Virus record (IMG/VR): IMGVR_UViG_3300009537_000005
Strand: one strand, 5' to 3'
Source of the DNA: a virus
DNA: 64,000 nucleotides
The notes under the pieces were generated by a model that saw only the letters and a list, made by a program, of their open reading frames with translations, was not told the origin of the DNA and ran no database searches. Positions 8,567-62,783 of the stretch are shown in pieces. Position numbers and translations under genes: made by a program. Every line of letters starts with the position of its first letter. Position 1 is the first letter of the stretch.

Positions 8567-8573
8567 CCTATAT

Positions 8574-8815: not shown

Positions 8816-8886
8816 CGCGGGGTTGAGGAGCGGCTCCTCCGTAGGCTCATAACCTACTCACGTCGGTTCGAATCCGACCCCCGCTA
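8816..8886 (+). tRNA. second CAT-anticodon tRNA (Met/fMet/Ile2 undetermined); starts directly after the CCA of the previous tRNA
   Basis: D GAGG-AGCGGCT-CCTC, anticodon arm GTAGG-CTCATAA-CCTAC (initiator-like loop sequence), T-arm GTCGG-TTCGAAT-CCGAC, acceptor CGCGGGG/CCCCGCT with a 1-72 mismatch. Confidence 0.5.
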
Positions 8887-8892
8887 CTTAGT

Positions 8893-9044: not shown

Positions 9045-9125
9045 GGCGGTGCGCCCGTGTGGGAACGGGGTCGGTCTGTAGAACCGATGGCATGCGCATA
9101 GGAAGTTCGATTCTTCACGCCGCCA
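9045..9125 (+). tRNA. tRNA-Tyr (GTA), class II
   Basis: Acceptor GGCGGTG/CGCCGCC, D CCCG-TGTGGGAA-CGGG, anticodon arm TCGGT-CTGTAGA-ACCGA, 12-nt variable arm, T-loop TTCGATT. Confidence 0.7.
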
Positions 9126-9182
9126 CCTAGACCAATTCGGGTCTATTATCCGAGTGGTTTTCTCCTCGGAAAGGAGGATTCA

Positions 9183-17898: not shown

Positions 17899-18888
17899 AT
17901 GACGACGAAAGAGGTTAAACCCATTGATGAGATTGTGATTATCGGGGATACGTACCCCGTTGTGCGCTTACCTCTCGGTCTTTACTCGATTGATAAAGCG
18001 TTTGGATTTAAAGGCGTCGATGGACTACCACTACGTTCAGTTGTGGAACTCTATGGTCCAAGTCACTCCGGAAAAACTACATTCGCTCTCGACATAGCGG
18101 CGAAAGTAAACCCGGAAGGAGAAATTTGGTATGCCGATTTGGAAGGGACGCTTGACAAAGAATACGCCCGAGAGGTCGTTCACACAGCGGGTTTTCGGGG
18201 CACATTACGAATCACTGACTACACGGAGGAAAAGAAAGGTAAGATTGTTATGCGCTCGCATGAGATACAGGTTCAAGAGGCTATTGAGGCGATGGCAAGA
18301 CCGGAAGTCTCGGCGGGGATATTAGACAGCATCGGTGCTTTCTTTACTGTTGTGGAGGCTGGTAAAGATTTGGGCGAGCGAACGATGGGTCAGCGAGCCA
18401 AAACAATTGCGGATGCTTCTCGTTGGCTATCGGCTGGACTACGCGTTGTGGAAGACCCTAAGCTCTTCGTCTATATTAATCACACCCACCCAAATATCGG
18501 AGGCCGTGGATTTATCACTCCGGGCGGCGAAACTAAAACGTATATTGCGAACACTAGAGTGTGGATCAGAGTTGTGGACAGTGACCGCCCGACAGCCACA
18601 GGAAATTTTCTCGCAGAAGCCAAAGTCCAAAAACTAAAACACGGCGGAACGCATGCTGAACGCAAGGGATGGATATATTTTATACCTGGATATGGAGTGG
18701 CACGAGGCATGACTGCCGTGTTCGATTGTTACAAGTATGGATTGGCTGACTTGGGTAACGTAGTACGGCTCGACGGTGAAAGTCATGGACGAATGAGACA
18801 ACTCGTAGATGCAGAAGTAAACGGAGAGCGCGAAGTGTTTGAGCCATTTCACGCGGCTTTGAAAGGACTAGACAATGATAAAGATTAG
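17899..18888 (+). CDS. RecA-like recombinase (RecA/Sak4/UvsX fold)
   Basis: Walker A LYGPSHSGKTTFAL (compare RecA GPESSGKTT), Walker B-like ILDS. Confidence 0.65.
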   Translation: MTTKEVKPIDEIVIIGDTYPVVRLPLGLYSIDKAFGFKGVDGLPLRSVVELYGPSHSGKTTFALDIAAKVNPEGEIWYADLEGTLDKEYAREVVHTAGFRGTLRITDYTEEKKGKIVMRSHEIQVQEAIEAMARPEVSAGILDSIGAFFTVVEAGKDLGERTMGQRAKTIADASRWLSAGLRVVEDPKLFVYINHTHPNIGGRGFITPGGETKTYIANTRVWIRVVDSDRPTATGNFLAEAKVQKLKHGGTHAERKGWIYFIPGYGVARGMTAVFDCYKYGLADLGNVVRLDGESHGRMRQLVDAEVNGEREVFEPFHAALKGLDNDKD

Positions 18889-44400: not shown

Positions 44401-45290
44401 CTCCGCAGGAATTCTTCTTTAACGGCAATGTCTTTCCATGCCGTATATCCAAGTTCGGATGCAAGCTCATTTCGATCTTTCGTAACTTCGTCTAGCGAAG
44501 TTGCGCCTGTAATTTGGTGTATAGCTTCCTTGAAGAAAACCGGAAATGCCTTGAGTGGACCTACGTATCCCCTCCATCTCTCTAGTTCTTCGTCGGTAAC
44601 TAATTTATCCTGTTGTAGAGAAGCAATTGAGTTTAGATACGCAGGACCAGTAACGTCAACTTTCCACCATCTGTCTAATTCTTGGGCTCCTAGTCCTATA
44701 AAGGAAACGAACGAACCAACTGCCCGAGGGATAACGTTAAGAACACTTAGCTTGTCGCCACCAACAGATTCGGCACCTTCCCAGCCTGCTCTAATCCCCT
44801 CGGCGGCAATACCCAATAGTGCCATGAAGGACTGTCCGTATTTCTTCCCTGCTGTGGCATTGCCGGCTTCTGCCTCAGTGTCCCAATAATCGTATACGTC
44901 CTTTACCTGGCCCAACGATGCCTTTAGGGCAGGATTATCGTCCGGCAGTTCAGTCCTGTCTTCTGTGAATTTGTAGGAGATTCGTGCCCAAATGCCCTTC
45001 AAACCGGGACCAAAATCGGGCTTTCCGTTGAACTGCCAACCACGAGCGGTTTCCGGCAGTTCTTCTCCATTCGGACCAAAAATGGCCGTCTTGTAGTCCC
45101 AATCAGTGGGCATTCCTCGATCATCGTACTCTCGCGCGACGCCGGGAAAAGGACTGTTGATAGAGTTTAATTGAGCTCGCCAATCTTCGGGACTTTCGTA
45201 ATTGTACGTGAACGATGCTTTAATCGACTCAGTTTGTGGCACCGTGCCTGCCGTTGCGCCAAATGCTCCTTTTGCTTTTCGTCTTGCCAT
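38478..45290 (-). CDS. giant 2270-aa virion-associated protein (function unknown)
   Basis: Single uninterrupted ORF between the LysM protein gene and the scaffold promoter; mixed helical and globular segments; no motif I can assign. Confidence 0.6.
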   Translation of the reverse strand: MARRKAKGAFGATAGTVPQTESIKASFTYNYESPEDWRAQLNSINSPFPGVAREYDDRGMPTDWDYKTAIFGPNGEELPETARGWQFNGKPDFGPGLKGIWARISYKFTEDRTELPDDNPALKASLGQVKDVYDYWDTEAEAGNATAGKKYGQSFMALLGIAAEGIRAGWEGAESVGGDKLSVLNVIPRAVGSFVSFIGLGAQELDRWWKVDVTGPAYLNSIASLQQDKLVTDEELERWRGYVGPLKAFPVFFKEAIHQITGATSLDEVTKDRNELASELGYTAWKDIAVKEEFLRRVAAGEDPRLLAMELEDPLEELMGEFLFDPLNLISLGAKKLLPLAADLGAFGDGVKVARDGKRLMRAIDVAAEGGDVGKIQKATAELLQWINDGARRAVDDIAGDARRAEDLGGLRGLLTETADSLQNTLTENMSDTIHQLVSLTEGPDDAVRLMNDLSKLLDSNLEDVARLEALENVQNAIKGTNIPKNLLFGENAQRTAHVWRRLMGDNNGKRIVELLDEAGGDIVKTNQLLADELKRITNDIFPTIGRRIEEHGKYTELLKSGKAEDVAKANKILETKPWAANAPNQLHQTLHQIYSKVRPAYRAAGKAQGTLFMGLNPAYRMRNRMGNFAVLFVDVSPKAAAESFFENPWSRKWARNTLNDYLGGFAPAAERRGIGGGAAASFDAGDWMKGKFNYFATKASEDEVIAGTHVMARSVKRFMNRFLTPKYALQGLDQLVKNPGDVKVLQRLIKKHYGDVNKALVEFADARGVDNLSNLLFLNDRQLAILEKLHLDDAVRKALNPSLSRQEQATRLNEIVNQHQGRGFLASGEGVIRRDPRYIEEIADIEKGMGGIRGNRLGDLFERKVHTAQVMVDEASAALDDTLRMVGDAVHNHFTRGARSVDEAKSMGRKAKDFMFNVIQESKKKADSVMAGETGVRRTMLNFRTQVWKWNDEVTEMQHISILDLWHKQRGWMGPVPEFAEELPKADLNRMFKNSLWRGYTEKATREYWEGFLGQMNHYMDGIEKFKHVLDPEGTGEISKLIEPMLERVRRKHSLADAMHRTVMDGNGNAILRVGANELEDLLIDTWMIRKAASKALEPEGLEATAETVRRFIHNIRTQAQDGTFDPKETMGLLDDVLGEAIKDVAGSEARAEEMLRILAGKEPDSALTIRLLEEEKTTIFLGGQTRDSIKFQMRELQTEINMLNNPAGDWGELREGSEVLVTGFGDKPLRVSVDSLPYTTPGGQDKIYVNTPLGRRSVKRSQISIPDDVAENANRYNELSARMNRMEKRLKTAPEQLEEVRQAEIAEIDRRIKAIQDGLDVEQTAIRSAIAERYVKVNEADLPQSMQDEFFFTEDIYRIDLGDGDYALFQPQFKTNKGMGWRPGKFVVPEAQRGRGVGTKFMDEMKKLSDEFKLEMGIQPDTKDLHRFYDQIDGLIIDEAEGGRRYLYTPRTDPPERFSTPIIAAMDDATPTVARSDYATFPQVKKSIDEVLAHLNTLDDSPQLSPHRAAYSNEEWARLREGASGIQEKINEVRTMAGQVAVKERDFALHNYGKRYGFDMVAGLIFPYQFWYSRSYAKWMKRMVQTPAILTHYLQYRRFLEKKHAGLPDWWKYQMNTNDLFGLDAENPLYFNLEAMINPLHGLTNVDFTDPQRRKDWWGGAMEDIQKMGPSVWTPFTYGLAAYYSLQGEEEAAARWAGRLLPQSKAIRDITALVDPQGLGIEIDPAVHLWGGGDPLAFTGSKVGVEAYERGRVGRQLGLMVNEGKWTEAEIIEAAYRQEGEIWDVARARAIHDRASHWGLIAGQFMFGVGAKPRPEGDIQIDTMYKEMRNLIAHRPDVSEENYAKGWNMLREAYPFLDTILLAKKGGLERDEALAWNVLNRIPPGMSFEMAKVANMDYDTITQFRSNKGDLSELSEAQRLDFMGGVMQLGALLDVPPDATRRDWDRASQEYSDMMAHGEKVFGEDIWQKVDLYYASFDESNQDAMRNFLKANPIVQEALDFKQMTINGSPSLMTYYGSVEKLEKFYKGQFYQTVEQVFGDNIWDKWSVYHELKDMGETKAANKYFKDNPELKGYLVMRDEMLPIIDQKVLELGDTIEERQGPFFRGEENVIDPNVEIQSFNVDEQQRWISDQVMSYAQGQSANNRTQADVVDHIRAQADSLWPSTKQSARRYYKIVNSNPNGAASMLQENAELETRVRWEFDRILRIALAREGELEASAARYQSELEQMGVQGQSPTAFENLAPGPLKRLLNDPDGLPPHLWELLGGR

Positions 45291-49274: not shown

Positions 49275-50996
49275 TTATAGACGCGTCTCAACAAAACCAT
49301 GAAAAGGATTTTTCTTTTTGGACCTCTGTCCTAGTTGTCGTACTGGGTCAGCAAATGAGATCAAAGCGTGGTAAATAGCATAGTAAATGGCGTCTAAGAT
49401 ATCTGCTGCCTTATCACCGCGTTTACGAATATCAGGATATCGTTTCAAGACCTTTTCTACTTCCGCCAAGAAAATGGCCTGTTGCTGATCTCCGACATGG
49501 TCTTTGTCTAAAAGCACGACTCGTTCGCCTGCAAACATGGGTTCGAGATTCATTTCCCATCGCCGTTCTTTGCTTTCACTTCCGGGTGTAACTCCCCAGA
49601 TAGGCATAGATTGATGAGTTGTTCGGGCTAAGATGTGCATAAACTCTTTACCGCCGGCCGCTTCTTCAATTTGTACTGCTTCCATATTGTTGTACTTCGT
49701 CCAGTATTCGAGAGTTAATCGCTCCGCCTGTGATTGTGTTACCCGCGCAACTACTCCATCAATGATGATCCATGTTCCGCTTTCTGGATGTTGAGCAATC
49801 ACAACCAGCGCAAAGTAGCTTCGTTCTGACCCCGTTCCTTCTCCAGCCGCGTAGTCACAACCAATTCTGTGAAACCAATAATCTTTGTGTATTTGAACTA
49901 CTCTAAACGTAAAGTGCTTATCGAACTCGCCTACTAGCTTTAGTAAACGATTTTTCATAAATTCCCGCTTGCCTGGCGATGTGTCGGCATCATAAATTGC
50001 TTGAATAGCCTCAACAGGAAATACCTCAGGACAAGTTGGTGTTCCCGGCCACGTTCCTTCAAGAGTAATCGGGGTTTCAATCTTTATATATTGTGGACTC
50101 TCTGGAAGCGTCTGCGTTAGGTCGTCGTCGTTCCAAGGTGTCCCAATCATACCCAGACGGCTTGTGGGCTGACGTGTGGGCTCCACTTCTGATATGAAGC
50201 GAGTTTTGATCGTCTCTGTTTCGTTCAGCGTTTCGCCGGCCCGGTGGAGGTCGTCCGCCAGCATTAAATTCGAAGTTCTGGAACCAAGAACACCGGCACC
50301 TCCAATACCAAACTTCGAGATGGTCGGTGACGTCCTTGATGCCTCCATCAACGCCCACTCGTCTTCAGGAACGGTTGTATCAATAACACTGTAACCCGTT
50401 CCGGCGCTCCATTCGCCTCCCGCTTGGCCTGGCCGCGACTTCGGTACAACCTTCGGAAACCACAGCTTCCATGCTGGGTTGTTAACGATGATATTTGCTA
50501 TCCCTTCTGCCGCTTTGCGAGCCGGAGCATCTGCCACTCGTATAATCAAATTTTCAAGGTGGGGATACAGGCCAGTTCCATAAACCATTAGGTTCCTCAT
50601 GAAAATTGATTTTCCAAATCCACGACTAGCAATAATTACCGGTGAAACTCGTTTTGACCAACATTGCCAACAGTGATCTGCCCACTTTTGTTGGTGGGAT
50701 AACAAAGGAAGGGTAGTCGCCGTAAGAAAAAACAATGCGAACCCCTCTGGACTGTCGGCTTTAATTTCTGGGTTAGGAATGGGATTTGATCCATAAGTTG
50801 GGAGTAGTTTCCATTGTTTGGGCGATAATGCGCCCTCGGGAGCTTCTATATACCAGTCGTGTTCTACTTGTCTGAAGAATTGGAAGAAGTCTCGCCCAAT
50901 TGCTTCGCTTATACGCTTTACTTCATTTTCTATTGCTTCGGGAGATACGATTGCTCCTTGCAGGGCATTATCCAATAAAAGCCTAATTTGGATCAT
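49275..50996 (-). CDS. terminase large subunit
   Basis: Walker A ASRGFGKS, Walker B LMLADDL, C-terminal RNase H-like nuclease region; 573 aa. Confidence 0.75.
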   Translation of the reverse strand: MIQIRLLLDNALQGAIVSPEAIENEVKRISEAIGRDFFQFFRQVEHDWYIEAPEGALSPKQWKLLPTYGSNPIPNPEIKADSPEGFALFFLTATTLPLLSHQQKWADHCWQCWSKRVSPVIIASRGFGKSIFMRNLMVYGTGLYPHLENLIIRVADAPARKAAEGIANIIVNNPAWKLWFPKVVPKSRPGQAGGEWSAGTGYSVIDTTVPEDEWALMEASRTSPTISKFGIGGAGVLGSRTSNLMLADDLHRAGETLNETETIKTRFISEVEPTRQPTSRLGMIGTPWNDDDLTQTLPESPQYIKIETPITLEGTWPGTPTCPEVFPVEAIQAIYDADTSPGKREFMKNRLLKLVGEFDKHFTFRVVQIHKDYWFHRIGCDYAAGEGTGSERSYFALVVIAQHPESGTWIIIDGVVARVTQSQAERLTLEYWTKYNNMEAVQIEEAAGGKEFMHILARTTHQSMPIWGVTPGSESKERRWEMNLEPMFAGERVVLLDKDHVGDQQQAIFLAEVEKVLKRYPDIRKRGDKAADILDAIYYAIYHALISFADPVRQLGQRSKKKNPFHGFVETRL

Positions 50997-51710: not shown

Positions 51711-51969
51711 AACTTCCCTTAAATTCGGGGTCATTTATCGCAAAATTCGCTCCCAAAGCGGCCAAAAGTTGTAAAATATCTGTTCTAGTGATCGCCGGAT
51801 CAGTTATTGATAGTCTTGTGTACACTTCTTCTACCAAAGTTCGCATTTTCGAGCGCTCAGAGCGTTCCATTTTCATTAGAGCGCTCGAAAACACTTTTCG
51901 GCCGGTGTATTGAAGTTCGGCGGCGAGTTTACTTGTTGTACTTCCCATTTTCTTGCTCCATAAGCTCAT
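51706..51969 (-). CDS. hypothetical small protein
   Basis: ORF track. Confidence 0.3.
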   Translation of the reverse strand: MSLWSKKMGSTTSKLAAELQYTGRKVFSSALMKMERSERSKMRTLVEEVYTRLSITDPAITRTDILQLLAALGANFAINDPEFKGSS

Positions 51970-53161
51970 CTAATAGCGCCGTCGTTTCTTCAAAGTCCTC
52001 CAGCCAATTCGTTCGGATAACAAAATCTATCAAATGTTTATTTCCTTGTTGAACAAATGACTTATACGGCAAATCTTCCCACGTACCAACCAGATTTTCT
52101 TCGACCGGGTCTTCTCCAAGCGGTTCTCCTCTGGCTTGTGCTTCCTCTTTACTCGGGCTGGCATATCCATACGTCATGTAGCCATGGTAATTTTCTAGTC
52201 TTCCAGGCATAACGTTCTGTGCATAAGCAATAAACGTATCTTGAGGGAAATAAACCTCAATTCCATGCGCCGCGCATTGTCCTAACCACCATTCCATACC
52301 CGGTCGTTGTTGAAAATATTCTGTTTCTACCTGCTCTAGTTCGCACCCATAAATTTCAATACGTTCCCAATCCTTCACACCAGTTAATTTTTCATAAATT
52401 ACCAATGCAAGCATATAACTGAATGTCGAAGCGAAATACTGGTGTACATAACCAGCGCCTCGTGGTAATTTATCACCAATCAAAAGCTCACAGACCTCTC
52501 TCAAAGGAAATTTTACACTATTCGGAACGTCCGCAAAGTGCCTCTGCATGTAAATTTGAGGTACTTTGCTCTCTTGTAGCCATTTCCAATGGTCTTCTGC
52601 GTATCGAGTTCGTCGTCTAGTGAATCTCCAGCGATGGTGAAGCTGGAACCAGCGATCAAATAACGATATTTTTTCTTTAAAGATGACAGCGGAGTCATTC
52701 AAACCCCACCATTCGTCGATGCCAGTCTCGTTCCATGGTGCCAAAGGTCCACTTCGGCTGTGTGTACCCATCATCACAACAGTTTTCTTGTCCTTTCGTT
52801 GTTTCATTCGTTCTCGAATTGTGATCGGATGTGCCCTAGCAACGTAATCATATGCCATTTTCTTTTCTCTCGATGACGAGGGGCGCTCTGTCGACGGTAT
52901 GTTGAAGTTTGCTTCGCCGTCTTCGTTCACAGTAAGCGCCGTATGATTGTTGCACATCGGACAATTTATCGGATGAGTTCCAACCGGCATCATCGGGATA
53001 CTTACATTGAAGTTAAGTTCATCTCCACGAACCGGTGCCATTGGATTTGCTTGTCCATGCGCGCTTCTTTTGTGATTTCGTAGCGCCGCCACAGACCCAA
53101 ACTCCTTTTCGCATAGTGGACATTTCTTCTTTTGTTTTCTAGGTCTATTTCTTTTCGTCAT
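51929..53161 (-). CDS. hypothetical protein with an N-terminal C2H2-type zinc finger
   Basis: CPLCEKEFGSVAALRNHKRSAH. Confidence 0.4.
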   Translation of the reverse strand: MTKRNRPRKQKKKCPLCEKEFGSVAALRNHKRSAHGQANPMAPVRGDELNFNVSIPMMPVGTHPINCPMCNNHTALTVNEDGEANFNIPSTERPSSSREKKMAYDYVARAHPITIRERMKQRKDKKTVVMMGTHSRSGPLAPWNETGIDEWWGLNDSAVIFKEKISLFDRWFQLHHRWRFTRRRTRYAEDHWKWLQESKVPQIYMQRHFADVPNSVKFPLREVCELLIGDKLPRGAGYVHQYFASTFSYMLALVIYEKLTGVKDWERIEIYGCELEQVETEYFQQRPGMEWWLGQCAAHGIEVYFPQDTFIAYAQNVMPGRLENYHGYMTYGYASPSKEEAQARGEPLGEDPVEENLVGTWEDLPYKSFVQQGNKHLIDFVIRTNWLEDFEETTALLDELMEQENGKYNK

Positions 53162-53913
53162 TAGAATGCCGTCACTGGGGCAATGGGCCCGAACTTTCTC
53201 GATGGTAGTCTACGACGAAGTGATAGAAAGATTCCATTCTTGTAAAATATCGACCAGTCCTCGTTTTCGTGGATGATCTTATTCACGCCGTGAAATACAT
53301 CTGGATAGCCTTCTTCGTAGTTGTCGAAACCGATATAATCTGATGTCCGCTTGCTTACATTCTCGAAGTCTTTATACGGCATATCTCGCATATGATCGCC
53401 ATCAATGTAAGCAGTAACAAAATTATTTTCTTCCAATTCTTCCGGCCATGGATCGGAGTACTTCTGAATTAAATTTAACTTCACGTCAAACAGCTTGGCG
53501 TTCTTTCTCAACTCCTCTGGGGTAGCGACAAGCAGACTTTGATCTTCTTTTGGTTGACCGGTAGTGGGGTCTATAATTCTAATGTCCTCCTCCCTTTTTT
53601 CAGCGTCGTACGGATCAATACAATATACTTCTCCTTCTAATCCCAACTTTCGTTTTACAAGAGCCACGGCGATGGCGCTTGCTCCAAACAAAGTCCCAAT
53701 CTCTACGTGGTCTCCGTCGCCGGCGTTGGCAACCATGCTCATCAGGAAAACCAAACTCGCTCCGCCATCGGCAATTCTGCCTGTAAATTCCTTATCTTTC
53801 ATGCTCTGATTAAGTTCTTGCATAACTTTAAATACTTCTGGGTAAATCCTCATTACTTGGCCTCCGGTAATTTCGCCGCGCCTTGGGCGACAGCAATTTC
53901 TGCCAATTCCCAC
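53161..53913 (-). CDS. class I SAM-dependent methyltransferase (TylF/MycF-like O-methyltransferase)
   Basis: GDGDHVEIGTLFGASA Rossmann SAM-binding segment and YIDGDH metal/substrate motif. Confidence 0.45.
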   Translation of the reverse strand: MGIGRNCCRPRRGEITGGQVMRIYPEVFKVMQELNQSMKDKEFTGRIADGGASLVFLMSMVANAGDGDHVEIGTLFGASAIAVALVKRKLGLEGEVYCIDPYDAEKREEDIRIIDPTTGQPKEDQSLLVATPEELRKNAKLFDVKLNLIQKYSDPWPEELEENNFVTAYIDGDHMRDMPYKDFENVSKRTSDYIGFDNYEEGYPDVFHGVNKIIHENEDWSIFYKNGIFLSLRRRLPSRKFGPIAPVTAF

Positions 53914-54599
53914 TCTTCACGGGTATTGATGTCGAACCCTTCCCATTCGTCCACAACAAACGGAACGATGATTGATCCAGCTATGCTCCGTGTTTCGTAA
54001 ACGGTTTTCGTTCTGGCAAATTCCATACCAGCAGTTTGGACGTAGACATCAAACAGAGATTGAGTTGGTGAACTGTGCCACGGTTGAAATTCTGGCCCCA
54101 TAGGAAACAAGGGCAATAGTAGATTGTCTCGAATAACCCACATCTTGCCTGGGTGTTCTGATGCTCGTCGTACAGTTCTTAAAGAATCCGCCTCTTGGCG
54201 AAAATAGAATTCTGACGCTGCCGCCGAAATTAGACTTGCGCTTCGGAATGGACTTGTTACTCTTAAAATAGCAAATACATCTGCTGGATCGCCATCTTCA
54301 TCAAGTTTTTGTAGCGCCCACTGTACCCATTCGATATCCGGCGAATTGTCCTGTACTGTGTAATTTGGACGTTTCCACGGAACTGATGCTCCGTAGTCCT
54401 TGGCTATTTCGGCGTGCACGTCGCTCTTCACAACCGCTATAACTCGATCAAAAACACCACTGTTGATGGCCGCTCGAATTGTGTACGCCATAAGCGGATG
54501 TCCAGCCAAAAGTGCCTGTTCTTTATCCAGTCCGTCAATTAGACCTACTCTACTCCCACCTGCCCGAAGTGGAATAAACGCTACCGTATTTGTTCGCAT
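53853..54599 (-). CDS. cytidylyltransferase of the CMP-nonulosonic acid synthetase (NeuA/CMP-Kdo synthetase) family
   Basis: N-terminal AFIPLRAGGSRVGL (compare NeuA IPARGGSKGL) and FDRVIAVVKSD. Confidence 0.55.
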   Translation of the reverse strand: MRTNTVAFIPLRAGGSRVGLIDGLDKEQALLAGHPLMAYTIRAAINSGVFDRVIAVVKSDVHAEIAKDYGASVPWKRPNYTVQDNSPDIEWVQWALQKLDEDGDPADVFAILRVTSPFRSASLISAAASEFYFRQEADSLRTVRRASEHPGKMWVIRDNLLLPLFPMGPEFQPWHSSPTQSLFDVYVQTAGMEFARTKTVYETRSIAGSIIVPFVVDEWEGFDINTREEWELAEIAVAQGAAKLPEAK

Positions 54600-55591
54600 T
54601 GAAGTAATTCTCCTTTTTTCACGTCTCTATCCAACCGATGACGCACAAATTTTGCTACATTTAACTTGGTTGGATACAAACCCCCCGGTTTCATGGGAGA
54701 CTGTATCGCTATATGATATTCTTTTATTTTCGTTCCTTTTTTCAAATCCCTTCCCCAATAGAGACTATGTGCCATTTTTTGAATCGGCGCAATTTCGGAC
54801 TTCATTGGTTGGTCTCGCCATTCTAACGCCCTGGCTGTGCGGTTTAGGTACTTAACGTACTGTTGGAGCCCGAAAAACTCCAAAGAGAACCTGTGGTCGG
54901 TTCCTTTTGCGTTGTGATCCAAGGTTATGTGCTTTTCAAAGACTCTGGCTCCAAGAGCATATGCCGCCGCCCCAAGCTCAATCCCATCCTGGTGGTCTGA
55001 CAAACCAATTGGAATGTACGGGAATGTTTCCTGAAGAACCGAAATCCTTCGAAGATTCATCATATCAGGTGGACAGGGATACGCTGCTACGCAGTGGAGG
55101 ATTGTTAGAGGATAATCCACAGGAAAAAGCGATACAGTTCTTATTATCGAATTTACAGACTGTCCTCCTACTGACATAATTGTCGGTTTGCCTGTTTTTA
55201 CAATTTCGCAAACTAAAAGATGATTTGTAACGTGGGCCGACGCGATTTTGTACTTACTAACATCTAATTTCTCTAAAAACTTTACGGATGGAATATCAAA
55301 CGGAGTAACGAAAAATTCTAGACCTTTTGATTCCGCGTATTGCTTTAGGGTCTCAAATTCGCTGGTTCCGAACTCTAGGGCTTCTCTGTGAGCCCCATAA
55401 GTCGGTCCGTAGCCATCATATGGCCTATTAAACATTTCGTCCGTATATAAACTTCGATTGTCCCGCTTTTGAAATTTTACGGCGTCTGTACCAGCTAGAT
55501 GTGCCATATCAATCAGCTTGTGAGCATCTTGAAGACTGCCATTGTGATTACCGCCAATTTCTGCTATGATGTAGGGGCTATTGTTGTCCAT
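54581..55591 (-). CDS. NeuB-family nonulosonic acid synthase (sialic/pseudaminic/legionaminic acid synthase)
   Basis: YIIAEIGGNHNGSLQDAHKLIDMAHLAGTDAVKFQKR is the classic NeuB signature; C-terminal SAF-like segment. Confidence 0.8.
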   Translation of the reverse strand: MDNNSPYIIAEIGGNHNGSLQDAHKLIDMAHLAGTDAVKFQKRDNRSLYTDEMFNRPYDGYGPTYGAHREALEFGTSEFETLKQYAESKGLEFFVTPFDIPSVKFLEKLDVSKYKIASAHVTNHLLVCEIVKTGKPTIMSVGGQSVNSIIRTVSLFPVDYPLTILHCVAAYPCPPDMMNLRRISVLQETFPYIPIGLSDHQDGIELGAAAYALGARVFEKHITLDHNAKGTDHRFSLEFFGLQQYVKYLNRTARALEWRDQPMKSEIAPIQKMAHSLYWGRDLKKGTKIKEYHIAIQSPMKPGGLYPTKLNVAKFVRHRLDRDVKKGELLQCEQIR

Positions 55592-55802
55592 AAAGTATTA
55601 ATCCTAGTATTCCTAGTACTACAAGAGAAGTTATTGATACAGCAATCCACGCTAAAAATAACTCCACATAGGTATCGCCAAAATAATCGTCTGGCTGTCC
55701 GTCGTTGTCTTTGTCTTGCCAAGGCCACTTCACTATAAACCTCCTGTTGAAAATCCACCGTCGCCGTTCCATAGTGATGTAGTAGTAAGAACGCCGTTCC
55801 AT
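55578..55802 (-). CDS. small membrane protein
   Basis: ORF track; one TM helix. Confidence 0.3.
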   Translation of the reverse strand: MERRSYYYITMERRRWIFNRRFIVKWPWQDKDNDGQPDDYFGDTYVELFLAWIAVSITSLVVLGILGLILYGQQ

Positions 55803-55984
55803 GGTGATGTAGTAGGGAAAACCAAACCACCCGACCGAAAGTCTGGTGTACCGTTGGAACTGGCGACATATTTCGATAGTTCTGGCAGTCTACTTGCCGG
55901 TAGTCCCGCTCCACATCCCGAACATTGCAACTGGGTTTCCCCGTCGTTCGCCTGGTTGCAATATTCACATTTTATTCTTCTCAT
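55733..55984 (-). CDS. small zinc-ribbon protein
   Basis: CEYC...CSGC. Confidence 0.3.
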   Translation of the reverse strand: MRRIKCEYCNQANDGETQLQCSGCGAGLPASRLPELSKYVASSNGTPDFRSGGLVFPTTSPWNGVLTTTSLWNGDGGFSTGGL

Positions 55985-56130
55985 AATTTATTCCCCTTTC
56001 CATTCAAAGGTTGTAACATATAGAATTCCTACGAAGCATTTGAATATAGAAAATCCAAATGATCGTGCATCTTTCCACTCTGTCGGTTCATTCCACGTAA
56101 AAGCAATTGGTAAAGTGGGAAACGGTTGAA

Positions 56131-56904
56131 TTACCATGCGCAGTAACCTCCGTCGATCAAAACCTGCTGGCCAGCAAACTCTGGACACTCTATTGCGAAT
56201 CTGAGGGCGGCTCGCCAACTTTGTTCGCTAATTGCTCTACCCAACGGAACGTTTTTAAAAAACTTTTCTTTGAATTCATCGGGAAGTCCCTTATCCAGCG
56301 GTCCGAAAGCAATGGTAACGGACCGAATATTGTGGCTTCCGTACTGTACGGTAATTGACCTTGATAATTGAATAAGTGCCGCTTTCGAGAGGTTGTAGGC
56401 AACTGGTTTTTCAAATCCCTCGTCATAGTTCCTCCAATCGGCACCAATGTTACCCATGATGCTACCAATGTTGATTATTACTCCTCCTCCGATGGCCTTC
56501 ATCCCCGGAATAAATGCCTTTGCGACATTAGCCGACCCGACAAGGTTCACATTGAGTATTTTTTCCATGTCTCCGAAAAAAGTGGCTCCAGAGCCGGGTG
56601 GATTGTCAATCGCCGCGTTGTTAACCACAACAGATGGTATTATGCCCTCTTCAAACAAATCGGCGGCATAGGCTCGCAACAAATCGGGGTTTGTTACATC
56701 ATATAGAGGCAAATCATAGCTAAAGACCTCATAACCCATCCGTGTTAGTTCGTCTATCCAGATTGGCCCCACCCGTCCGCTTCCGCCCGTTACTACTGCG
56801 TACTTCACGTACGTCGGTGGGGATGCCAATGAGGCCAAGCTTCTTTCCCAGTCAAAGTTAAAGTATTCTCCTACTTTCCAGTTGACCATTGTGTCTTGTT
56901 TCAT
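56131..56904 (-). CDS. short-chain dehydrogenase/reductase (SDR)
   Basis: TGGSGRVG Rossmann motif, NNAA, catalytic YNLSK (YxxxK). Confidence 0.7.
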   Translation of the reverse strand: MKQDTMVNWKVGEYFNFDWERSLASLASPPTYVKYAVVTGGSGRVGPIWIDELTRMGYEVFSYDLPLYDVTNPDLLRAYAADLFEEGIIPSVVVNNAAIDNPPGSGATFFGDMEKILNVNLVGSANVAKAFIPGMKAIGGGVIINIGSIMGNIGADWRNYDEGFEKPVAYNLSKAALIQLSRSITVQYGSHNIRSVTIAFGPLDKGLPDEFKEKFFKNVPLGRAISEQSWRAALRFAIECPEFAGQQVLIDGGYCAW

Positions 56905-58166
56905 GCCGATATCCTCACATACGTTGGTTCGCTTTTCTTTAACGCTGTTTTGAGGGTCGTATATATTTCATCAGGCGCTGGTTGGATTACATCCATTAAA
57001 TTTCCGATATACTCGGCGTCGTCAAGGCTTTGATGACTGATACCCGGCCCGGATGGGTCTAGAGGCCCCGCCATAGTTCCAATGTACACTACAGCTGTTC
57101 CTTCAGTAAGCTGGTTGTAAATTTGTTCGAATGCCCGGCGAATGAAACAAGCATAGGTAGCAAAAATCGGCTTTTGTCCCATCAAGGCGCGGGCCGAGGC
57201 AAAGGAGACTGCGTTTTGCTCCGCAATACCAAAGTCAAATACTCTATCAGGAAATTTTTCGCGAAGGTCGTATAAATGGAGGTCTCGCGCAGTATCGGCC
57301 GTAACCAAAATAACATCCTCATCGTTTTCCATAATCTTCTTGACCGATAGGCCCAGGGCTTTCATCTTTGAATTTTCTGGAAGCTCCGCTCCGGGCGCTC
57401 CGAAATGTGATTCTACTGTTCCTTCAAATTCCGTTCCCTTTCCTTTTGTTGTTATAAGAACAACCAGCCACGGGCCGCTCTCGCGATGCTCCTCTACCGT
57501 ATCTAAAATAAGATTAATCTCATCTAGGTCGTTTCCGTTCTCTGTACCTGCTACACTCCATCCAGCACCAACAAACATTTTTACAATTCGGTCTGTTGTG
57601 AGTTCAGTGGGCCCGTCTTGACTGAATTGGTTATAGTCGACGATAGCAACAATATTATTGACTTCATAATTTGCTGCCGCCAAGGCCGCCTCCCAATTCT
57701 GTCCCTCCATCATCTCCCCGTCGCCTAGAAGGACGTAAACCATTCTATCTTGGTCGAGGGCAAATCCAAGGGCTTTGGAAAGCCCCATTCCCAACGAACC
57801 GGTATTCGCCTCGATTCCGGGTATGTCCACGGTGGGATGACCGGGCAGGCCACCGTTGTTTCTGAAAGTATCCAACCGTCCCACATCAAGAATCCCACTC
57901 TCGGCCAGTACGGCATACTGTGCCAATGCGTCGTGTCCTTTTGAGGAGATAAATATGTCATCTTCATCCATCCTGTCCCTGATCGCTACGATAGCATCCA
58001 GCGACGATAAGGACGTTCCTAGGTGCCCCTTGCCCGCTTTCTCGACGATTTCAATAATTCGGGCTCGTAGCCGCTCGATCATTTCTTTACGTTCTTCTTT
58101 AGTGCCGCTAAGTGCTTCGTCGTCTTTTGTACTGTCGGGTGTGTCTTCTTTTCTTTTATAGGGCAT
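56901..58166 (-). CDS. transketolase-like thiamine-diphosphate enzyme (TPP-binding and Pyr domains in one 421-aa chain)
   Basis: GH...GSLGMGLS TPP-binding region and FGIAEQNAVSFASA pyrimidine-binding region. Confidence 0.65.
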   Translation of the reverse strand: MPYKRKEDTPDSTKDDEALSGTKEERKEMIERLRARIIEIVEKAGKGHLGTSLSSLDAIVAIRDRMDEDDIFISSKGHDALAQYAVLAESGILDVGRLDTFRNNGGLPGHPTVDIPGIEANTGSLGMGLSKALGFALDQDRMVYVLLGDGEMMEGQNWEAALAAANYEVNNIVAIVDYNQFSQDGPTELTTDRIVKMFVGAGWSVAGTENGNDLDEINLILDTVEEHRESGPWLVVLITTKGKGTEFEGTVESHFGAPGAELPENSKMKALGLSVKKIMENDEDVILVTADTARDLHLYDLREKFPDRVFDFGIAEQNAVSFASARALMGQKPIFATYACFIRRAFEQIYNQLTEGTAVVYIGTMAGPLDPSGPGISHQSLDDAEYIGNLMDVIQPAPDEIYTTLKTALKKSEPTYVRISA

Positions 58167-58486: not shown

Positions 58487-58737
58487 AAGGGGTCAACATA
58501 ATCTTCTTCCTTTCGATTTTTTTCCCACCAGTCCTTCTTATCCCCGTCTAGGTCTCCAACCTCTCGCAAGATATACCAACTGAGAAATACCTCCAGCATT
58601 TGGCCGACAAAAGTTAGGCCCGCTAAAATAAGAATTGCCCACTCCATTACCATAGCTCCGTAATTCGTAATGCCACCAAAATTAGAATGGTACCCATCGT
58701 TTATTCCTCCCCCGGTTTTTGTTCGGGCGGGTTCCAT
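58456..58737 (-). CDS. hypothetical membrane protein
   Basis: ORF track; TM helix; first gene after the promoter at 58940-58972. Confidence 0.35.
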   Translation of the reverse strand: MEPARTKTGGGINDGYHSNFGGITNYGAMVMEWAILILAGLTFVGQMLEVFLSWYILREVGDLDGDKKDWWEKNRKEEDYVDPLWKSTVGREQ

Positions 58738-58939
58738 AGGTCTTCTCGTATAAATATGCCGTTACAATCGCCATGAGGCCGTGCTATAACGTCCGGCGGT
58801 GTGATGTCGAGCGGTACTTCCAATTCCCACTGGGCGTCACAAAACTGGCAATCATAGGTATAAATCCAGGTTCCGTCCAATTAAGTTCTCCTGCTTAATT
58901 TACTCTAGGTTAAGTGAAAAGGCTTAACTCCCCTTCACC

Positions 58940-58972
58940 TATATATTGGGACCAAAACCTCGTTTTGTCAAC
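58940..58972 (-). promoter_or_regulatory. minus-strand promoter of the TTGACAAA family (sugar-cluster operon)
   Basis: Reverse complement reads ggggTTGACAaaacgaggttttgGTCCCAATATATAggtg. Confidence 0.55.
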
Positions 58973-59039
58973 CCCCAAATTCCTAGGTGATGCCTAATTT
59001 ATACCAAGGTGAATTAAAAAGTACTCTCCGCAACTTTTG

Positions 59040-59440
59040 ACGGGTAACGCGGGAATAAGGAGAGATGTAGACCTACTAGGGGGGTACCCTTCCAACCGAC
59101 CTAGGACGCAAATTCTGTGTGTGTGTACAAGCATAATAGCCCCACGGGGTGTATGGGAGTGGGGGTAGAGTACCGCTATATGTGGGGGATAGGGGTGAAA
59201 ATGGGCTAACCGGGCGGGGGTGGGGCGGATTCAGCACGTAGAACAAAGAAGAATCACGTAGGAGAAGGAGGAATCACGTAGGGATCGGTACAGTAGGGGG
59301 TCTAAGAACGATTCTAAGGGGTAGTTATGGGGTCTGTGTATGGTGGAAAGCCAATTCGCACCCCGCATGCTGTTAGGATGATAGTGGGGGGAATCAAAAC
59401 ACCCCATCCAGTTAGTAGAATGGGGTGTTTATGGGGGATC
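59040..59440. repeat. G-tract-rich noncoding island (C-rich on the transcribed minus strand)
   Basis: At least 12 runs of G4-G6 on the + strand within 400 nt; GT dinucleotide repeat; direct repeat GAATCACGTAGG x2 (59253, 59273); no ORF on either strand. Confidence 0.6.
59397..59435 (-). terminator. intrinsic terminator of the minus-strand gene 59448-60119
   Basis: ACACCCCA-N14-TGGGGTGT hairpin, followed on the minus strand by TTTTGATT. Confidence 0.5.
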
Positions 59441-59447
59441 GTGTGGA

Positions 59448-60119
59448 CTAAGCTAAACCTTGTATCCACCTAACTACGAACAGCACGCTAGACCACAAGG
59501 TCATGGGATACTCTTTAGTCAACTGAACGTCTCCATAGGGTTGTATCACCAAGGGGCGAAGATATCCGCCGTTGACCCTAGGGGTGGGGAGAGCAGGATC
59601 ACCGTCTAACAACGTTGGCACGTTGGTATTCGCACGGGGTCTAAACTCCCATGGCTTACCAGTAGGGCGACGTCCACTTTGAATAAGGACATCTAGCTCA
59701 CGCTCCAAGTCGTCATGAGCTAGATTGACCAGGTAACTTTCGTGCACAGCAAGTAGACTTGTGATCTTGTGATAGTTATCCATTATCTTATCCCCCTTAT
59801 CACGTAGGTCCTTAGCTTGCCGAATACTCGGTAAGTACACGTACTTTTTACCATGACGTTGGGCGTACTCTCTCTCACGTCGTCGTTGTCTAGCACTTTC
59901 CCTTTGTTCTTCGGTTTGCCTTGCGCGATACTCACGCATATATGCCGCTCGTTTGTCCTTATCTTCTCGTGTCTTATCAGACTTTTCATGCTTTCGTTTA
60001 GGTTCAGGTTCAGTATGTTTTACAATCCCCGTCCTTGCGCCCATGGCAGTAGTGGATTGCAATTCTATTGCCTTGCGCAATATCCTATTTTGTAGCTTAC
60101 GCTTTACTTTCGTACTCAT
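59448..60119 (-). CDS. hypothetical basic protein (R/K/E-rich)
   Basis: ORF track. Confidence 0.45.
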   Translation of the reverse strand: MSTKVKRKLQNRILRKAIELQSTTAMGARTGIVKHTEPEPKRKHEKSDKTREDKDKRAAYMREYRARQTEEQRESARQRRREREYAQRHGKKYVYLPSIRQAKDLRDKGDKIMDNYHKITSLLAVHESYLVNLAHDDLERELDVLIQSGRRPTGKPWEFRPRANTNVPTLLDGDPALPTPRVNGGYLRPLVIQPYGDVQLTKEYPMTLWSSVLFVVRWIQGLA

Positions 60120-60266
60120 TACCTATCCTTTCATTGCAATGTCAGTCTACTCAACTGCACATAAATTGTATCACAGGTGTCAAATTACTCTAGGGATTTT
60201 AGGACTGTGTGGACAATCTGCTCTGCTATATAAAGGAAAGCTCAAAACAGCACGTATGAATGGTCT

Positions 60267-60300
60267 TTGACTCAGACGTCGTAAAAATGGTAAACTATAT
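60267..60300 (+). promoter_or_regulatory. promoter/operator repeat copy 1 (TTGACT-N18-TAAACT)
   Basis: TTGACTcagacgtcgtaaaaatggTAAACTatat, a degenerate copy of the CACGTCGTAAACGTG palindrome. Confidence 0.5.
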
Positions 60301-60360
60301 CGTAAGGATCAGTCGGTTGATTGCCTGATCCTTACAATCAAATAAGAAAGGACGTCGATA

Positions 60361-60624
60361 ATGGCAACCTTTGACTTTGACAACGGATATCAAACAAACA
60401 CAGGAAAGCAGTCAACTAAACGTAGACGAATAAAAACAAACCGAGTGTATGGTGCACCATGTGATTGTTTTGACCTAGGTCTAACCTGTCCACATACTAC
60501 AAAGGAAAAAACAACCAACATACCAGACTCGATTGTTCTAGACAGTACGGACAAACGTCCAGATTGGCAAAAACACTTTGTGGTCGAAAGGAGTCAGAAC
60601 ACACAACGTTATAAGGCAGGATAG
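60361..60624 (+). CDS. hypothetical small protein
   Basis: ORF track; downstream of promoter copy 1. Confidence 0.4.
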   Translation: MATFDFDNGYQTNTGKQSTKRRRIKTNRVYGAPCDCFDLGLTCPHTTKEKTTNIPDSIVLDSTDKRPDWQKHFVVERSQNTQRYKAG

Positions 60625-60661
60625 GCCAACGAAAAAGCAGTACAGATGAAGTAACGTTTAC

Positions 60662-60696
60662 TTGACTCGCACGTCGTAAACGTGGTAAACTAGATT
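60662..60696 (+). promoter_or_regulatory. promoter/operator repeat copy 2
   Basis: TTGACTcgCACGTcgtaaACGTGgTAAACTagatt. Confidence 0.55.
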
Positions 60697-60781
60697 GTAG
60701 GGCAGTGCGGATTGCAATTGACTACGGTCGATTGCAGTGCGGGCGACCCTACGCTCAAATACAATTTGAAAGGATGATACA

Positions 60782-61006
60782 ATGGCAACAAACGTGGTAC
60801 AGAGTCGCGAAGACGCTCAGTTAAAGGCGTCAAAGCGAATCAATACAGCACTAGACAAGTTTAGACAAATTGGTAACACGGTCAATTGGGCCTTGACTAC
60901 CGAGGATCGACTTGCCATGGCAGATGCAATAGAGCAAGGGGCGGTCGAACTGGTCGAAAAACTGCGCGGTTCGAGCGCTAGTGGATCAACCGAATTTTCG
61001 TTCTAA
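60782..61006 (+). CDS. hypothetical small protein
   Basis: ORF track. Confidence 0.4.
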   Translation: MATNVVQSREDAQLKASKRINTALDKFRQIGNTVNWALTTEDRLAMADAIEQGAVELVEKLRGSSASGSTEFSF

Positions 61007-61105
61007 GATGTAGTGTTTCACAAGGCGACTAACTGGGTCAAAATCTAACACATCGCCGTAGTTAGTCGCCGTAGAAACCCAACATCACATTATAAGGGAG
61101 TTGAA

Positions 61106-61345
61106 ATGGTGACAATACTTGACTTAGATAGACGCGATCCTCTGGTAGTGTCCAGCACAATCTGGCAAGGAAGTGAACGTGTGGATATTCGGACCCACTA
61201 CTATGCGAAAGAATCCGACGAACTAAGCCCTACCAAGAAGGGAGTCAGCCTCAAGATCGACGAAGTACCAATTGTAGTACAGGCTGTTCTTGACGCCTAC
61301 AACCAAATGACGGGACAAAATCTAAGCTTGACTCACACGTCGTAA
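61106..61345 (+). CDS. hypothetical small protein
   Basis: ORF track; SD AAGGGAG. Confidence 0.4.
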   Translation: MVTILDLDRRDPLVVSSTIWQGSERVDIRTHYYAKESDELSPTKKGVSLKIDEVPIVVQAVLDAYNQMTGQNLSLTHTS

Positions 61346-61362
61346 ACGTGGTAAACTATATT
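61328..61362 (+). promoter_or_regulatory. promoter/operator repeat copy 3
   Basis: TTGACTcaCACGTcgtaaACGTGgTAAACTatatt. Confidence 0.55.
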
Positions 61363-61648
61363 GAAGGGAGACGACATGATTACAGTACTACCAAGAAACC
61401 AAGATGGCACGCTATCCAGCTTCGCATGGCCGGGGGGATATCGACTCTGGTATTATGGATGGGAAAACGACGAATGGGTAACACTTTGCCCCGAGTGTGC
61501 AAATGATTACAGTCGAGACACCGAGCGAATGGAGACCTTCGAATTTGACTGCGCTTATCCAGTGTGGGAGGGCGACCCAACTTTATGCGACGAATGTCAA
61601 GCCGAGTATCCGAGCGAATATGGTAATCCATACGCACCAGAGGACTAG
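61361..61648 (+). CDS. hypothetical Cys-rich protein (CPEC...CDEC)
   Basis: ORF track; zinc-ribbon-like Cys pairs. Confidence 0.4.
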   Translation: MKGDDMITVLPRNQDGTLSSFAWPGGYRLWYYGWENDEWVTLCPECANDYSRDTERMETFEFDCAYPVWEGDPTLCDECQAEYPSEYGNPYAPED

Positions 61649-61775
61649 ACATGAATCCCCCACCAATCGACCGGCTTGTATACGGAGTCATTTCGTGGTA
61701 TAAGATGGGGGAGATTTTAGTCGTGATGATAGGACTATGTTGTCTACTATCACAGTGGGCAATCTTGGAGGGTGA

Positions 61776-62009
61776 ATGATGCACCACAAAATGTCTGTAA
61801 AGGTCAACCTACGAAATCATCTAATTCGAACTGCGAAAGACAATGCGAAAGCACGAGGACATATATTAGGAACGTTTGACCTATACGGATTAAACCGTGC
61901 CTATGCAAACTGTCTTTGCTGTAATTGTTGGATACAGATAAATACAAACCCTTCGGTAAATGAAATTGACATTGCCGGAACTGCTATAGCTTTGCAATGC
62001 GAGGAGTAA
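61776..62009 (+). CDS. hypothetical small protein
   Basis: ORF track. Confidence 0.35.
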   Translation: MMHHKMSVKVNLRNHLIRTAKDNAKARGHILGTFDLYGLNRAYANCLCCNCWIQINTNPSVNEIDIAGTAIALQCEE

Positions 62010-62012
62010 ACG

Positions 62013-62348
62013 ATGTGCGATTGCACCCCCGATAGCGGACTGCCTAATTGTCTTTGTAGGAATTGTGGAGAACCTTCTTTCTCCCTTGATAACTATCCAT
62101 GGGGCGACTGGACCGCGCGTGATTGGTCCGAACCTCAAGAATTATCCAACTGGACGATTGATGACGAGGGGAGGGAGATAATTCCCACGGCAAGTATAAA
62201 ATATAACGAGAAGGGACTTTCACTTTCAAGTCTATGGCAAGGTAGGAACATAGTCGCATGTTGGGACAACGAGGGCAACCAATTCAGTCTACATCACGCC
62301 TATAGTCTTATGTTTGACCTAGCACGCAACCTAGGATTGTTTGACTGA
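62013..62348 (+). CDS. hypothetical Cys-rich protein
   Basis: ORF track. Confidence 0.4.
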   Translation: MCDCTPDSGLPNCLCRNCGEPSFSLDNYPWGDWTARDWSEPQELSNWTIDDEGREIIPTASIKYNEKGLSLSSLWQGRNIVACWDNEGNQFSLHHAYSLMFDLARNLGLFD

Positions 62349-62349
62349 C

Positions 62350-62384
62350 TTGACTCGCACGTCGTAAACGTGGTAAACTAGATT
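62350..62384 (+). promoter_or_regulatory. promoter/operator repeat copy 4
   Basis: TTGACTcgCACGTcgtaaACGTGgTAAACTagatt; additional TTGACT at 62341. Confidence 0.55.
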
Positions 62385-62398
62385 ATGGAGACAACAAA

Positions 62399-62595: not shown

Positions 62596-62668
62596 GTCCT
62601 CTTAGTCTAGAGGTCTAGGACACCGACTTCTCAGGTCGGGAACGTAGGTTCGAATCCTACAGAGGACA
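62596..62668 (+). tRNA. tRNA-Glu (CTC), isolated copy
   Basis: GTCCTCT-TA-GTCTAGAGGTCTAGGAC D-arm closely resembles bacterial tRNA-Glu; anticodon arm CCGAC-TTCTCAG-GTCGG; T-arm GTAGG-TTCGAAT-CCTAC. Confidence 0.65.
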
Positions 62669-62783
62669 CCTAGCCGTCCCGTCGGCCAGTGGCCCTACGC
62701 TGGCAGAAGTAGGCAGAAGCTAAATACCCAGTCAACCACGGGAGAAGACTGGTTTCTTCTCACTACGTCTGAAAGGAAAGAAC

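Follow-up and report, generated by a model that had tools for sequence, protein, structure and literature searches.

What is a 400-bp island of G-runs doing between the gene blocks of a phage chromosome? We addressed this question in the IMG/VR virus record IMGVR_UViG_3300009537_000005, of which a stretch of 64,000 nucleotides was analysed (the window). The window covers most of the 69,284-bp metagenomic contig of an uncultivated phage, 64 of the ~69 kb being readable. The phage has 27 tRNAs and encodes a replisome resembling that of T7 as well as a large terminase of the T7/N4 class. A first-pass annotation had singled out positions 59040-59440 (the island) as a G-tract cluster that might form G-quadruplex (G4) structures, act as a Rho-utilisation (rut)-like element or, as a fall-back, provide a replication or packaging signal. 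Our results show that the island is a real, strongly non-random, and large non-coding control region at the place where the early gene block meets the late one, and that this type of region is conserved in a phage lineage without cultured members. We favour, with a probability of about 35%, the interpretation that it is or contains a T7/N4-type terminal-repeat or concatemer-junction region, i.e. a chromosome end. The plausible kinds of element (chromosome ends, packaging sites, origins, and control regions) are well known, and the island demands no new category.

G-tract density and position of the island

Thirteen runs of at least four G start within 59040-59440 on the + strand, in line with the 12 or more G4-G6 runs that had been reported, and the quoted strings were recovered at 59077-59089 (TAGGGGGGTACCC), 59155-59170 (GGGAGTGGGGGTAGAG), 59182-59197 (GTGGGGGATAGGGGTG), and 59211-59228 (CGGGCGGGGGTGGGGCGG). 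The whole window contains 129 such runs, or ~0.8 per 400 bp, and the second-densest 400-bp stretch on either strand holds 5. The Poisson tail for the island count, estimated by hand from the run counts, is ~1e-11, a density far beyond chance. On the + strand of 59130-59396, G makes up 39% and C 14.6% of the bases, and the GC skew of the island (+0.45 to +0.57) is the extreme of the window. The maximal G4Hunter score (25-nt windows) was 1.96, above the usual threshold of 1.5 and compatible with the proposed G4 potential. Scores of at least 1.75 were reached by six windows in all 64 kb, four of them within the island, and a scan of both strands found a single canonical G3+N1-7 four-tract motif in the 64 kb, at 59184-59214.

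The island lies at the boundary of the early and late arms, because the late promoter adjoins it on the left and the early promoters (from 60266) follow beyond a 223-residue gene on the right. The predicted flanking elements, an intrinsic terminator and the sugar-operon promoter, were both found. The description of the island as lying between two leftward operons applies to its left side; the right neighbour is a single minus-strand gene (59448-60119) that reads toward the island. The gap free of open reading frames (ORFs) of at least 70 residues extends from 58738 to 59447 and is the largest of the window outside the tRNA array. Small ORFs of 43-58 residues inside the island were rejected as genes, since the region is unalignable between relatives and the ORFs are not conserved.

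No structured RNA family was detected with Rfam on either strand, the only hit being CRISPR-DR48 at chance level (E 2.5), and comparison of the island fold with shuffled sequences gave no stability signal on either strand (z of +0.88 and -0.31). The G-runs show no helical phasing over the periods examined (8-14 bp) and are irregularly spaced, 6-74 bp apart; the lack of a 10-11-bp periodicity rules out a phased duplex-binding array. Phase-variable simple repeats were likewise rejected: neither the G6 nor the (GT)5 tract is long enough, and relatives retain (GT)n as a conserved element.

Conservation of the region in related phages

Relatives were identified in a large protein collection through homologues of the 223-residue protein, the terminase, and a transketolase-like enzyme. 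The comparison set comprised the window phage and seven genotypes: L001 (=L002), L004, L005 (=L008), L011, L015, L009, and L017. L005 and L008 are identical over 14.5 kb, and L009 and L017 are more distant, with a terminase identity of 45-46%. We found no DNA match to 58700-59700 among GenBank phages and no relatives in IMG/VR, whether the query was a protein (two used), the terminase alignment, or a conserved DNA pattern (two used). Searching a reference genome set with the terminase alignment also gave no match, and hence no host assignment. A DNA-pattern scan of metagenomes returned only L008, the twin of L005, and a chance bacterial match (L007). All known members of the lineage come from groundwater and freshwater metagenomes, and it has no cultured relative.

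Every relative has a non-coding region of 380-870 bp upstream of the same late operon. Its promoter-proximal part aligns in the window phage, L004, L011, L005, and L001, and in part in L017 and L009, with a shared order: promoter, tandem TGCGTAGG-type sites, a core reading TCCGCAwyTTTyGACGGGtAACG ... CCTACTAGGGGGG ... GACCTAGGACAGAA, and then TTTTGTGTGTRT. In the window, the promoter of the leftward sugar, terminase, and structural operon occupies 58942-58971 on the minus strand, with TTGACA at 58971-58966, an 18-nt spacer, and AATATA at 58947-42 inside TTTGGTCCCAATATA; it is kept at the equivalent place in L001, L005, L011, and L004. The spacer upstream of it (58976-59026) is moderately AT-rich and contains TCCTAGGTGATGCCTAAT. 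At this position, relatives carry tandem (A/G)TGCGTAGG sites 11 bp apart, present as two copies in L005, L017, L009, and L001, and L005 has an extra AT-rich insert of ~80 bp.

The core block (TCCGCAACTTTTGACGGGTAACG ... CCTACTAGGGGGGTACC ... CGACCTAGGACGCAAA; 59027-59113, + strand) occurs once in the window and approaches coding DNA in its degree of conservation; its G6 tract corresponds to a C7 tract in L001. It is followed by the conserved TTTTGTGTGTRT element (59114-59128, +), which includes the (TG)5T tract at 59116-59126 noted previously. A (TG)n element follows the core in the window phage, L001, L004, L005, L011, and L009. All relatives share a conserved core of ~100 bp plus a (GT)n tract, succeeded by a fast-evolving, strand-asymmetric array of G-runs or GT-rich sequence.

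Past TTTTGTGTGTRT, the region is unalignable between relatives and retains its strand-asymmetric G-run or GT-rich character. Runs of at least four G number nine in L011 and seven in L001, both above the background of their own locus, and L004 has GGCGTGTGT repeats in place of the G4 runs. Across six relatives, ATGGGG occurs 14 times compared with 0.8 expected (once on the opposite strand) and TAGGGG 10 times compared with 0.4 expected (twice on the opposite strand). These strand-specific hexamers are enriched 17- to 25-fold at the island locus in five of the six relatives, and each genome has one WWGGGG cluster. The G/T-rich block of L009 and L017 lies on the opposite, late-sense strand. A canonical G4 motif was found in two of the eight homologous regions, those of the window phage and L017 (G4Hunter 2.32, same strand). 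The eight diverged versions have kept the core, the (GT)n tract, and the same-strand G-run hexamers, but neither the canonical G4 motif nor the rut polarity. The G4 potential that the first-pass annotation had recognised holds for the window and is not a conserved property.

A short G-rich motif repeated in one orientation also recalls Chi sites (ATGGGG 14 vs 1, TAGGGG 10 vs 2), with the polarity flipping in L009 and L017. The lactococcal Chi sequence GCGCGTG is present in L001 and L004 and not in the window island.

A possible chromosome end and its alternatives

The class of the terminase points to short terminal repeats. The best PHROG of the large terminase is phrog_38, which is likewise the best for T7 gp19 and for the terminase of the N4-like phage OLIVR1. 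Its only relatives of solved structure are those of T7 gp19 (8dgc and 4bij), and hhalign to T7 gp19 gave a probability of 97% (E 7e-11, 363 columns). With tblastn, the closest isolates include N4-like Schitoviridae. Relatedness of terminases is accepted as a guide to the type of genome end, and this class produces exact, short repeats of 200-700 bp at the termini (PMC5000459). The gene layout agrees with ends at the island: the early promoters (60266-62390, +), tRNAs, and replication genes run rightward, the late operon with the terminase runs leftward from 58971, and opening the chromosome at the island would give an N4-like map. The region is also the largest non-coding one outside the tRNA array, and both its core and its motif cluster occur once per genome. 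In addition, the contigs of three of the eight distinct related genotypes (L004, L005=L008, and L015) stop inside the intergenic region of the island, with p ~0.01 by a rough hand estimate that assumes a ~5% chance per contig. A role at the DNA level fits better than one at the RNA level, because there is no phasing, no RNA structure signal, and no transcript entering the island in the relatives of divergent type.

Anatomy, conservation, uniqueness in the genome, terminase class, and gene layout were computed; from these, we infer each step that leads from a T7/N4-class terminase to ends located at the island, and the use of the G-tract motifs as recognition or processing elements. The comparative evidence favours the fall-back suggestion of a replication or packaging signal. 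In the model that we propose, the island would form the variable half of a non-coding DNA region that acts in cis, occurs once, and marks the junction of the early and late arms. Replication would yield concatemers, and the terminase, encoded ~8 kb downstream, would recognise the core (TCCGCA..GACGGGTAACG..CCTACTAGGGGGG..(GT)n) together with the lineage-specific same-strand WWGGGG or GT-rich array and cut there. The site of cutting would be a short direct terminal repeat or a concatemer junction. In virion DNA, as in N4-like phages, the early promoters would then point inward from one end, and the late promoter, sugar operon, terminase, and structural genes would point inward from the other. 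The G4 potential of the window genome would be a by-product of the motif array rather than a selected property.

Phages of defined ends offer a qualitative comparison. Like the terminal repeats of T7 and SP6 (Autographiviridae), the island adjoins early promoters, is non-coding, occurs once, and measures a few hundred bp, in a genome whose terminase shares phrog_38 with T7 gp19 and aligns to it at an hhalign probability of 97%. The C-run/G-run palindrome of the island, ATAGCCCCACGGGG, resembles CCCCCATAGGGGG of T7 and CCCCATAGGG of SP6, and T7 CCCCCATAGGGGGTACC can be set beside CCTACTAGGGGGGTACC plus ATAGCCCCACGGGG of the window. G3-5 runs (GGGTT/GGGG), TGTGTC, GT-rich stretches (SP6 GCGTGTGTGGGCGTGGGC; T7 GGGTTGGGGATGACCCTTGGGTTTG), and flanking short same-strand repeats are further common traits. 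However, no sequence is alignable, the chromosome of ~70 kb has two convergent arms where T7 and SP6 are unidirectional podoviruses of 40 kb, no T7-type RNA polymerase or concatemer-junction (CJ) pause signal was identified, and the ends are here deduced from sequence. The strand asymmetry of G-runs is also much stronger in the island than in T7. The Agrobacterium phage OLIVR1 (Schitoviridae) is among the closest isolate matches of the large terminase, although the identity is only ~25%. Its early genes and tRNAs read in from the left end and its terminase genes lie 1.5 kb from the right end and read inward, a two-arm layout that is shared with the window phage. The left end of N4 has G4/C4 hairpins and a C8 run; unlike N4, the phage studied here has no recognisable virion RNA polymerase, its 2270-residue protein being without matches.

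Several observations weigh against ends at this site. No second copy of a repeat is visible in the readable 64 of ~69 kb, and the assemblies of the window phage, L001/L002, L011, L009, and L017 run straight through the island, which fits collapsed terminal repeats and the absence of ends equally. The contig breaks could stem from strain-level hypervariability or poor coverage of G-rich DNA. The likeness to T7 and SP6 is qualitative: the G-run asymmetry is 7 vs 1 in SP6, 6 vs 5 in T7, and 10 vs 15 in phiKMV, and there is none in N4. Moreover, the 223-residue gene of the window phage and L001 would point outward to the proposed end, the G/T-rich block has the reverse polarity in the distant lineage of L009 and L017, and the terminase class predicts the existence of short repeats and not their location.

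Two further explanations are serious rivals, each less likely than a chromosome end. One holds that the island governs transcription at the early/late switch, as a control region or insulator, with arrays of regulator sites upstream of the late-class promoter, comparable with the p4/p6 control region of phi29, which lies between divergent early and late promoters. The island starts ~60 bp upstream of the -35 element of a conserved promoter, the tandem TGCGTAGG sites with their 11-bp spacing are kept in four relatives, and L001 carries a sigma-like gene. Furthermore, the CACGTAGG repeats of the island have a CACGT half-site in common with the palindrome of all four early-promoter repeats. Yet control of this kind accounts for the promoter-proximal 150 bp and CACGTAGG, not for the 250-350 bp of same-strand G-run or GT-rich motifs, which are unphased and diverge too far to be aligned. 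The late-class promoter motif, moreover, has five copies in the window (4381+, 11680+, 38251-, 51694-, and 58956-), each ahead of a gene block, and the other four are without any island; the same fact rules out a general promoter accessory. The other explanation is a replication origin, at which the island would open under the negative supercoiling expected upstream of one or two strong promoters, or form an R-loop or G4 on its G-rich strand, and would admit the primase-helicase and PolA, with CACGTAG as an iteron-like repeat. The phage encodes a T7-like replisome and a UvsX-like recombinase and has no recognisable initiator gene, the cumulative GC-skew minimum falls at ~58.9-59.0 kb, three CACGTAG repeats are spaced exactly 20 bp apart, and an AT-rich patch, enlarged by the insert in L005, adjoins the core. 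The divergent-promoter setting of L011, L009, and L017 would suit such a site, and several G-runs read GGGGTC or GGGTC, the T7 primase recognition type. Against an origin, we found no promoter oriented to transcribe the G-rich strand; the 20-bp repeats are not conserved in the relatives, the G-runs are irregular, the strand polarity flips in L009 and L017, and the skew minimum arises largely from the switch in gene orientation and from the skew of the island itself. As in the iteron origins of lambda, P1, and plasmids, direct repeats of the same orientation lie beside an AT-richer patch, but the patch is only modest, and no initiator-like match was found among the neighbouring or replication genes. 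An origin and a terminal repeat are not mutually exclusive, because the T7 terminal region also holds secondary origins.

The remaining alternatives appear less probable still. Rho-dependent back-up termination, by which readthrough past the hairpin of the 223-residue gene would expose C-rich RNA, load Rho, and shield the late operon from early transcription, was implied by the rut-like composition noted in the first pass, and this composition is borne out: the minus-strand RNA is C-rich and G-poor (C 37%, G 16%; mean C/G 2.6, maximum 5.9), and C exceeds G over 59106-59366, the longest such bubble in the window, with C/G above 2, well over the ~80 nt of weakly structured RNA typical of rut sites. 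YC dinucleotides reach 24.9 per 100 nt compared with a window average of 12.2, the RNA shows no stable fold (z = -0.3), and C-rich, G-poor, YC-rich sequence extends over more than 250 nt after a gene. In the window phage, L001, and L004, the island directly follows an intrinsic terminator, where a back-up terminator would be expected. A conserved rut function is nevertheless very improbable. Divergent promoters flank the island in L011, whose polarity is that of the window phage, and also in L009 and L017, so that no known transcript of C-rich sense enters it; the latter two phages have G/T-rich sequence on their late-sense strand. The island of the window may itself be barely transcribed, because it follows an intrinsic terminator and precedes the next promoter, and the layouts of these four phages speak against a transcribed, untranslated stretch that RNA polymerase enters. 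The island also differs from rut sites in having homologues that are untranscribed or of opposite polarity, specific conserved motifs and a core block would not be anticipated in a rut site, and the reading presupposes a host with Rho. We assign a similarly small chance to a functional G4 on the + strand acting as a regulatory or recombinogenic structure. The only canonical motif in 64 kb (G4Hunter 1.96) and the same-strand motif of L017 speak for it, and a PC4-like single-stranded DNA (ssDNA)-binding/coactivator protein of 79 residues (PF02229, E 3e-10) is encoded 1.7 kb from the island (61106-61345, +); PC4/Sub1 proteins bind G4 DNA. As with the pilE G4 of Neisseria and the origin G-rich repeated elements of metazoan origins, a strand-specific cluster of G-tracts lies upstream of promoters where negative supercoiling is expected. 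However, six of the eight homologous regions lack a G3+ four-tract motif with loops of up to 7, L004 carries GGCGTGTGT repeats instead, no small-RNA promoter was found, and the conserved unit is the WWGGGG hexamer rather than the four-tract arrangement. In a single genome, a strong G4Hunter score and a rut-like composition do not by themselves indicate a selected function. Somewhat less remote, though still improbable, is the idea that the G-tract array itself works, with G4 or ssDNA, extruded under the negative supercoiling that the flanking promoters generate, used instead of a duplex sequence by the replisome or T7-class terminase for replication start or concatemer-end processing, possibly involving the PC4-like protein; the island would then be a bacterial-virus counterpart of eukaryotic G-rich origin elements and herpesvirus G-rich pac elements. 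To the absence of any specific function we give an equally slim chance. Strand-biased deamination or slippage in a loosely constrained spacer might leave such a compositional or mutational by-product, and the variable half is indeed unalignable and its G-runs unphased, but five of six relatives show a 17- to 25-fold enrichment of the hexamers at the same locus, no genome has a second such cluster, and the adjoining core is conserved about as well as coding DNA.

Defining the function of the island, whether as the chromosome end that we favour or otherwise, would give the correct start and orientation of the genomes of this lineage. It would also provide a testable terminase or replisome recognition site, belonging to a T7/N4-class packaging enzyme in a genome that is not of podovirus size.

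Remaining features of the island and the surrounding genome

Right of the core and its (TG)5T tract, the sequence of the island includes the C4/G4 palindrome ATAGCCCCACGGGG (59136-59153, read from sequence), and ATAGCCCC-like motifs recur in L015 and L001. The first dense G-tract block (59146-59225, +) holds the canonical G4 motif, which can be extended to 59225. It is followed by a conserved CGGATTCAGCACGTAGAA block (59226-59243, +) that is identical in L004 and partly kept in L001. Three CACGTAG(G) repeats with exact 20-bp spacing begin at 59235, 59255, and 59275 (59235-59282, +); the last two lie within the direct repeat GAATCACGTAGG, confirmed at 59251 and 59271. The second G-tract block (59293-59391, +) consists of same-strand WWGGGG motifs (GTAGGGGG, TAAGGGG, TATGGGG, and AGTGGGGGG). 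The intrinsic terminator of the 223-residue gene (59397-59430, -) forms an 11-bp perfect stem (59397-59407/59420-59430) with a 12-nt loop and is followed by TTTTGATT; an equivalent hairpin with a T-run is present in L001 and L004. The 223-residue gene itself encodes a basic, helical orphan protein, found only in the window phage and L001, with no Pfam or PHROG match; its structure prediction was unusable (pLDDT 54.6, pTM 0.20).

The early region to the right carries four + strand copies of a 42-nt early-promoter repeat, CTTGACTCRCACGTCGTAAACGTGGTAAACTA, at 60266-60307, 60661-60702, 61327-61368, and 62349-62390. Each combines a sigma70-like -35/-10 pair with a CACGT-N5-ACGTG palindrome, which is probably an operator. 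An isolated tRNA-Glu gene (62596-62670) lies in the same region; the other 26 tRNA genes form an array at 4479-9127, which has a copy of the late-class promoter ahead of it (4365-4395). Directly after the array, a 547-residue Ro60/TROVE-like RNA-binding protein is encoded (9183-10826, +; phrog_850, E 4e-85), and a TROVE/vWA_Ro60 gene is also present in another transketolase-bearing phage (L012, L014). Between 9 and 23 kb, the + strand encodes this Ro60-like protein, a primase/helicase (12852-14168), a family-A DNA polymerase (PolA; 14928-16616), and a UvsX/RecA-like recombinase (17899-18888, +; phrog_97, E 4e-23). The position of the recombinase beside exonuclease genes implies recombination-dependent replication or repair.

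The minus-strand block of 37 kb runs from 58.97 kb down to 23.3 kb and comprises, in order, small genes, the sugar operon, the large terminase (573 residues; 49275-50996), a probable portal, the 2270-residue orphan, the major head protein, and an endolysin. In L005, the first gene after the late-class promoter (382-831) has a Tad6 (PF25188) domain, and the same slot of L011 holds an HNH endonuclease; this slot, whose small genes vary among relatives, may be a hot spot of accessory or anti-defence genes. The sugar operon (51929-58166, -) encodes a truncated transketolase-like thiamine pyrophosphate enzyme, a short-chain dehydrogenase/reductase, a NeuB-type nonulosonic acid synthase, and a methyltransferase. 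It lies between the late promoter and the terminase genes across L001, L004, L005, L009, L011, L015, and L017, and L004 adds a CMP-transferase.

Two genes upstream of the terminase, a 410-residue protein (51929-53161, -) is encoded that occurs in all relatives (383-417 residues). Its residues 13-35 match a C2H2 zinc finger weakly, below threshold, making it a candidate DNA-binding partner for the G-rich sites. The 195-residue protein upstream of the large terminase, a candidate small terminase, has no Pfam, PHROG, or PDB match and no similarity to the small terminase of OLIVR1. The 2270-residue protein (38478-45290, -) is encoded between the gene of a LysM/transglycosylase protein and those of the scaffold and major head, and sequence comparison with PHROG, Pfam, and PDB gave no match for it. 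Its size is kept in L003, L005, and L009 (2014-2243 residues), and possible roles are those of an internal protein that is ejected or of an enzyme carried in the virion.

Finally, we noted clues to the host and a further repeat family. The cyanobacterial palindrome HIP1 is absent. CCWGG is rare, with 40 sites in the window where ~105 are expected and 1 in 20.7 kb of L001 where ~30 are expected (hand estimates from base composition), and GGATCC is missing from the window and L001; this scarcity suggests avoidance of host restriction systems. Near the left end of the window, the 36-nt repeat GAGATCAAGCGAAGGAGGGAGAAGTGA occurs three times on the + strand, ~210 bp apart (759-794, 968-1003, and 1185-1220), and the copies resemble ribosome-binding/start regions that recur in small genes arranged in tandem.

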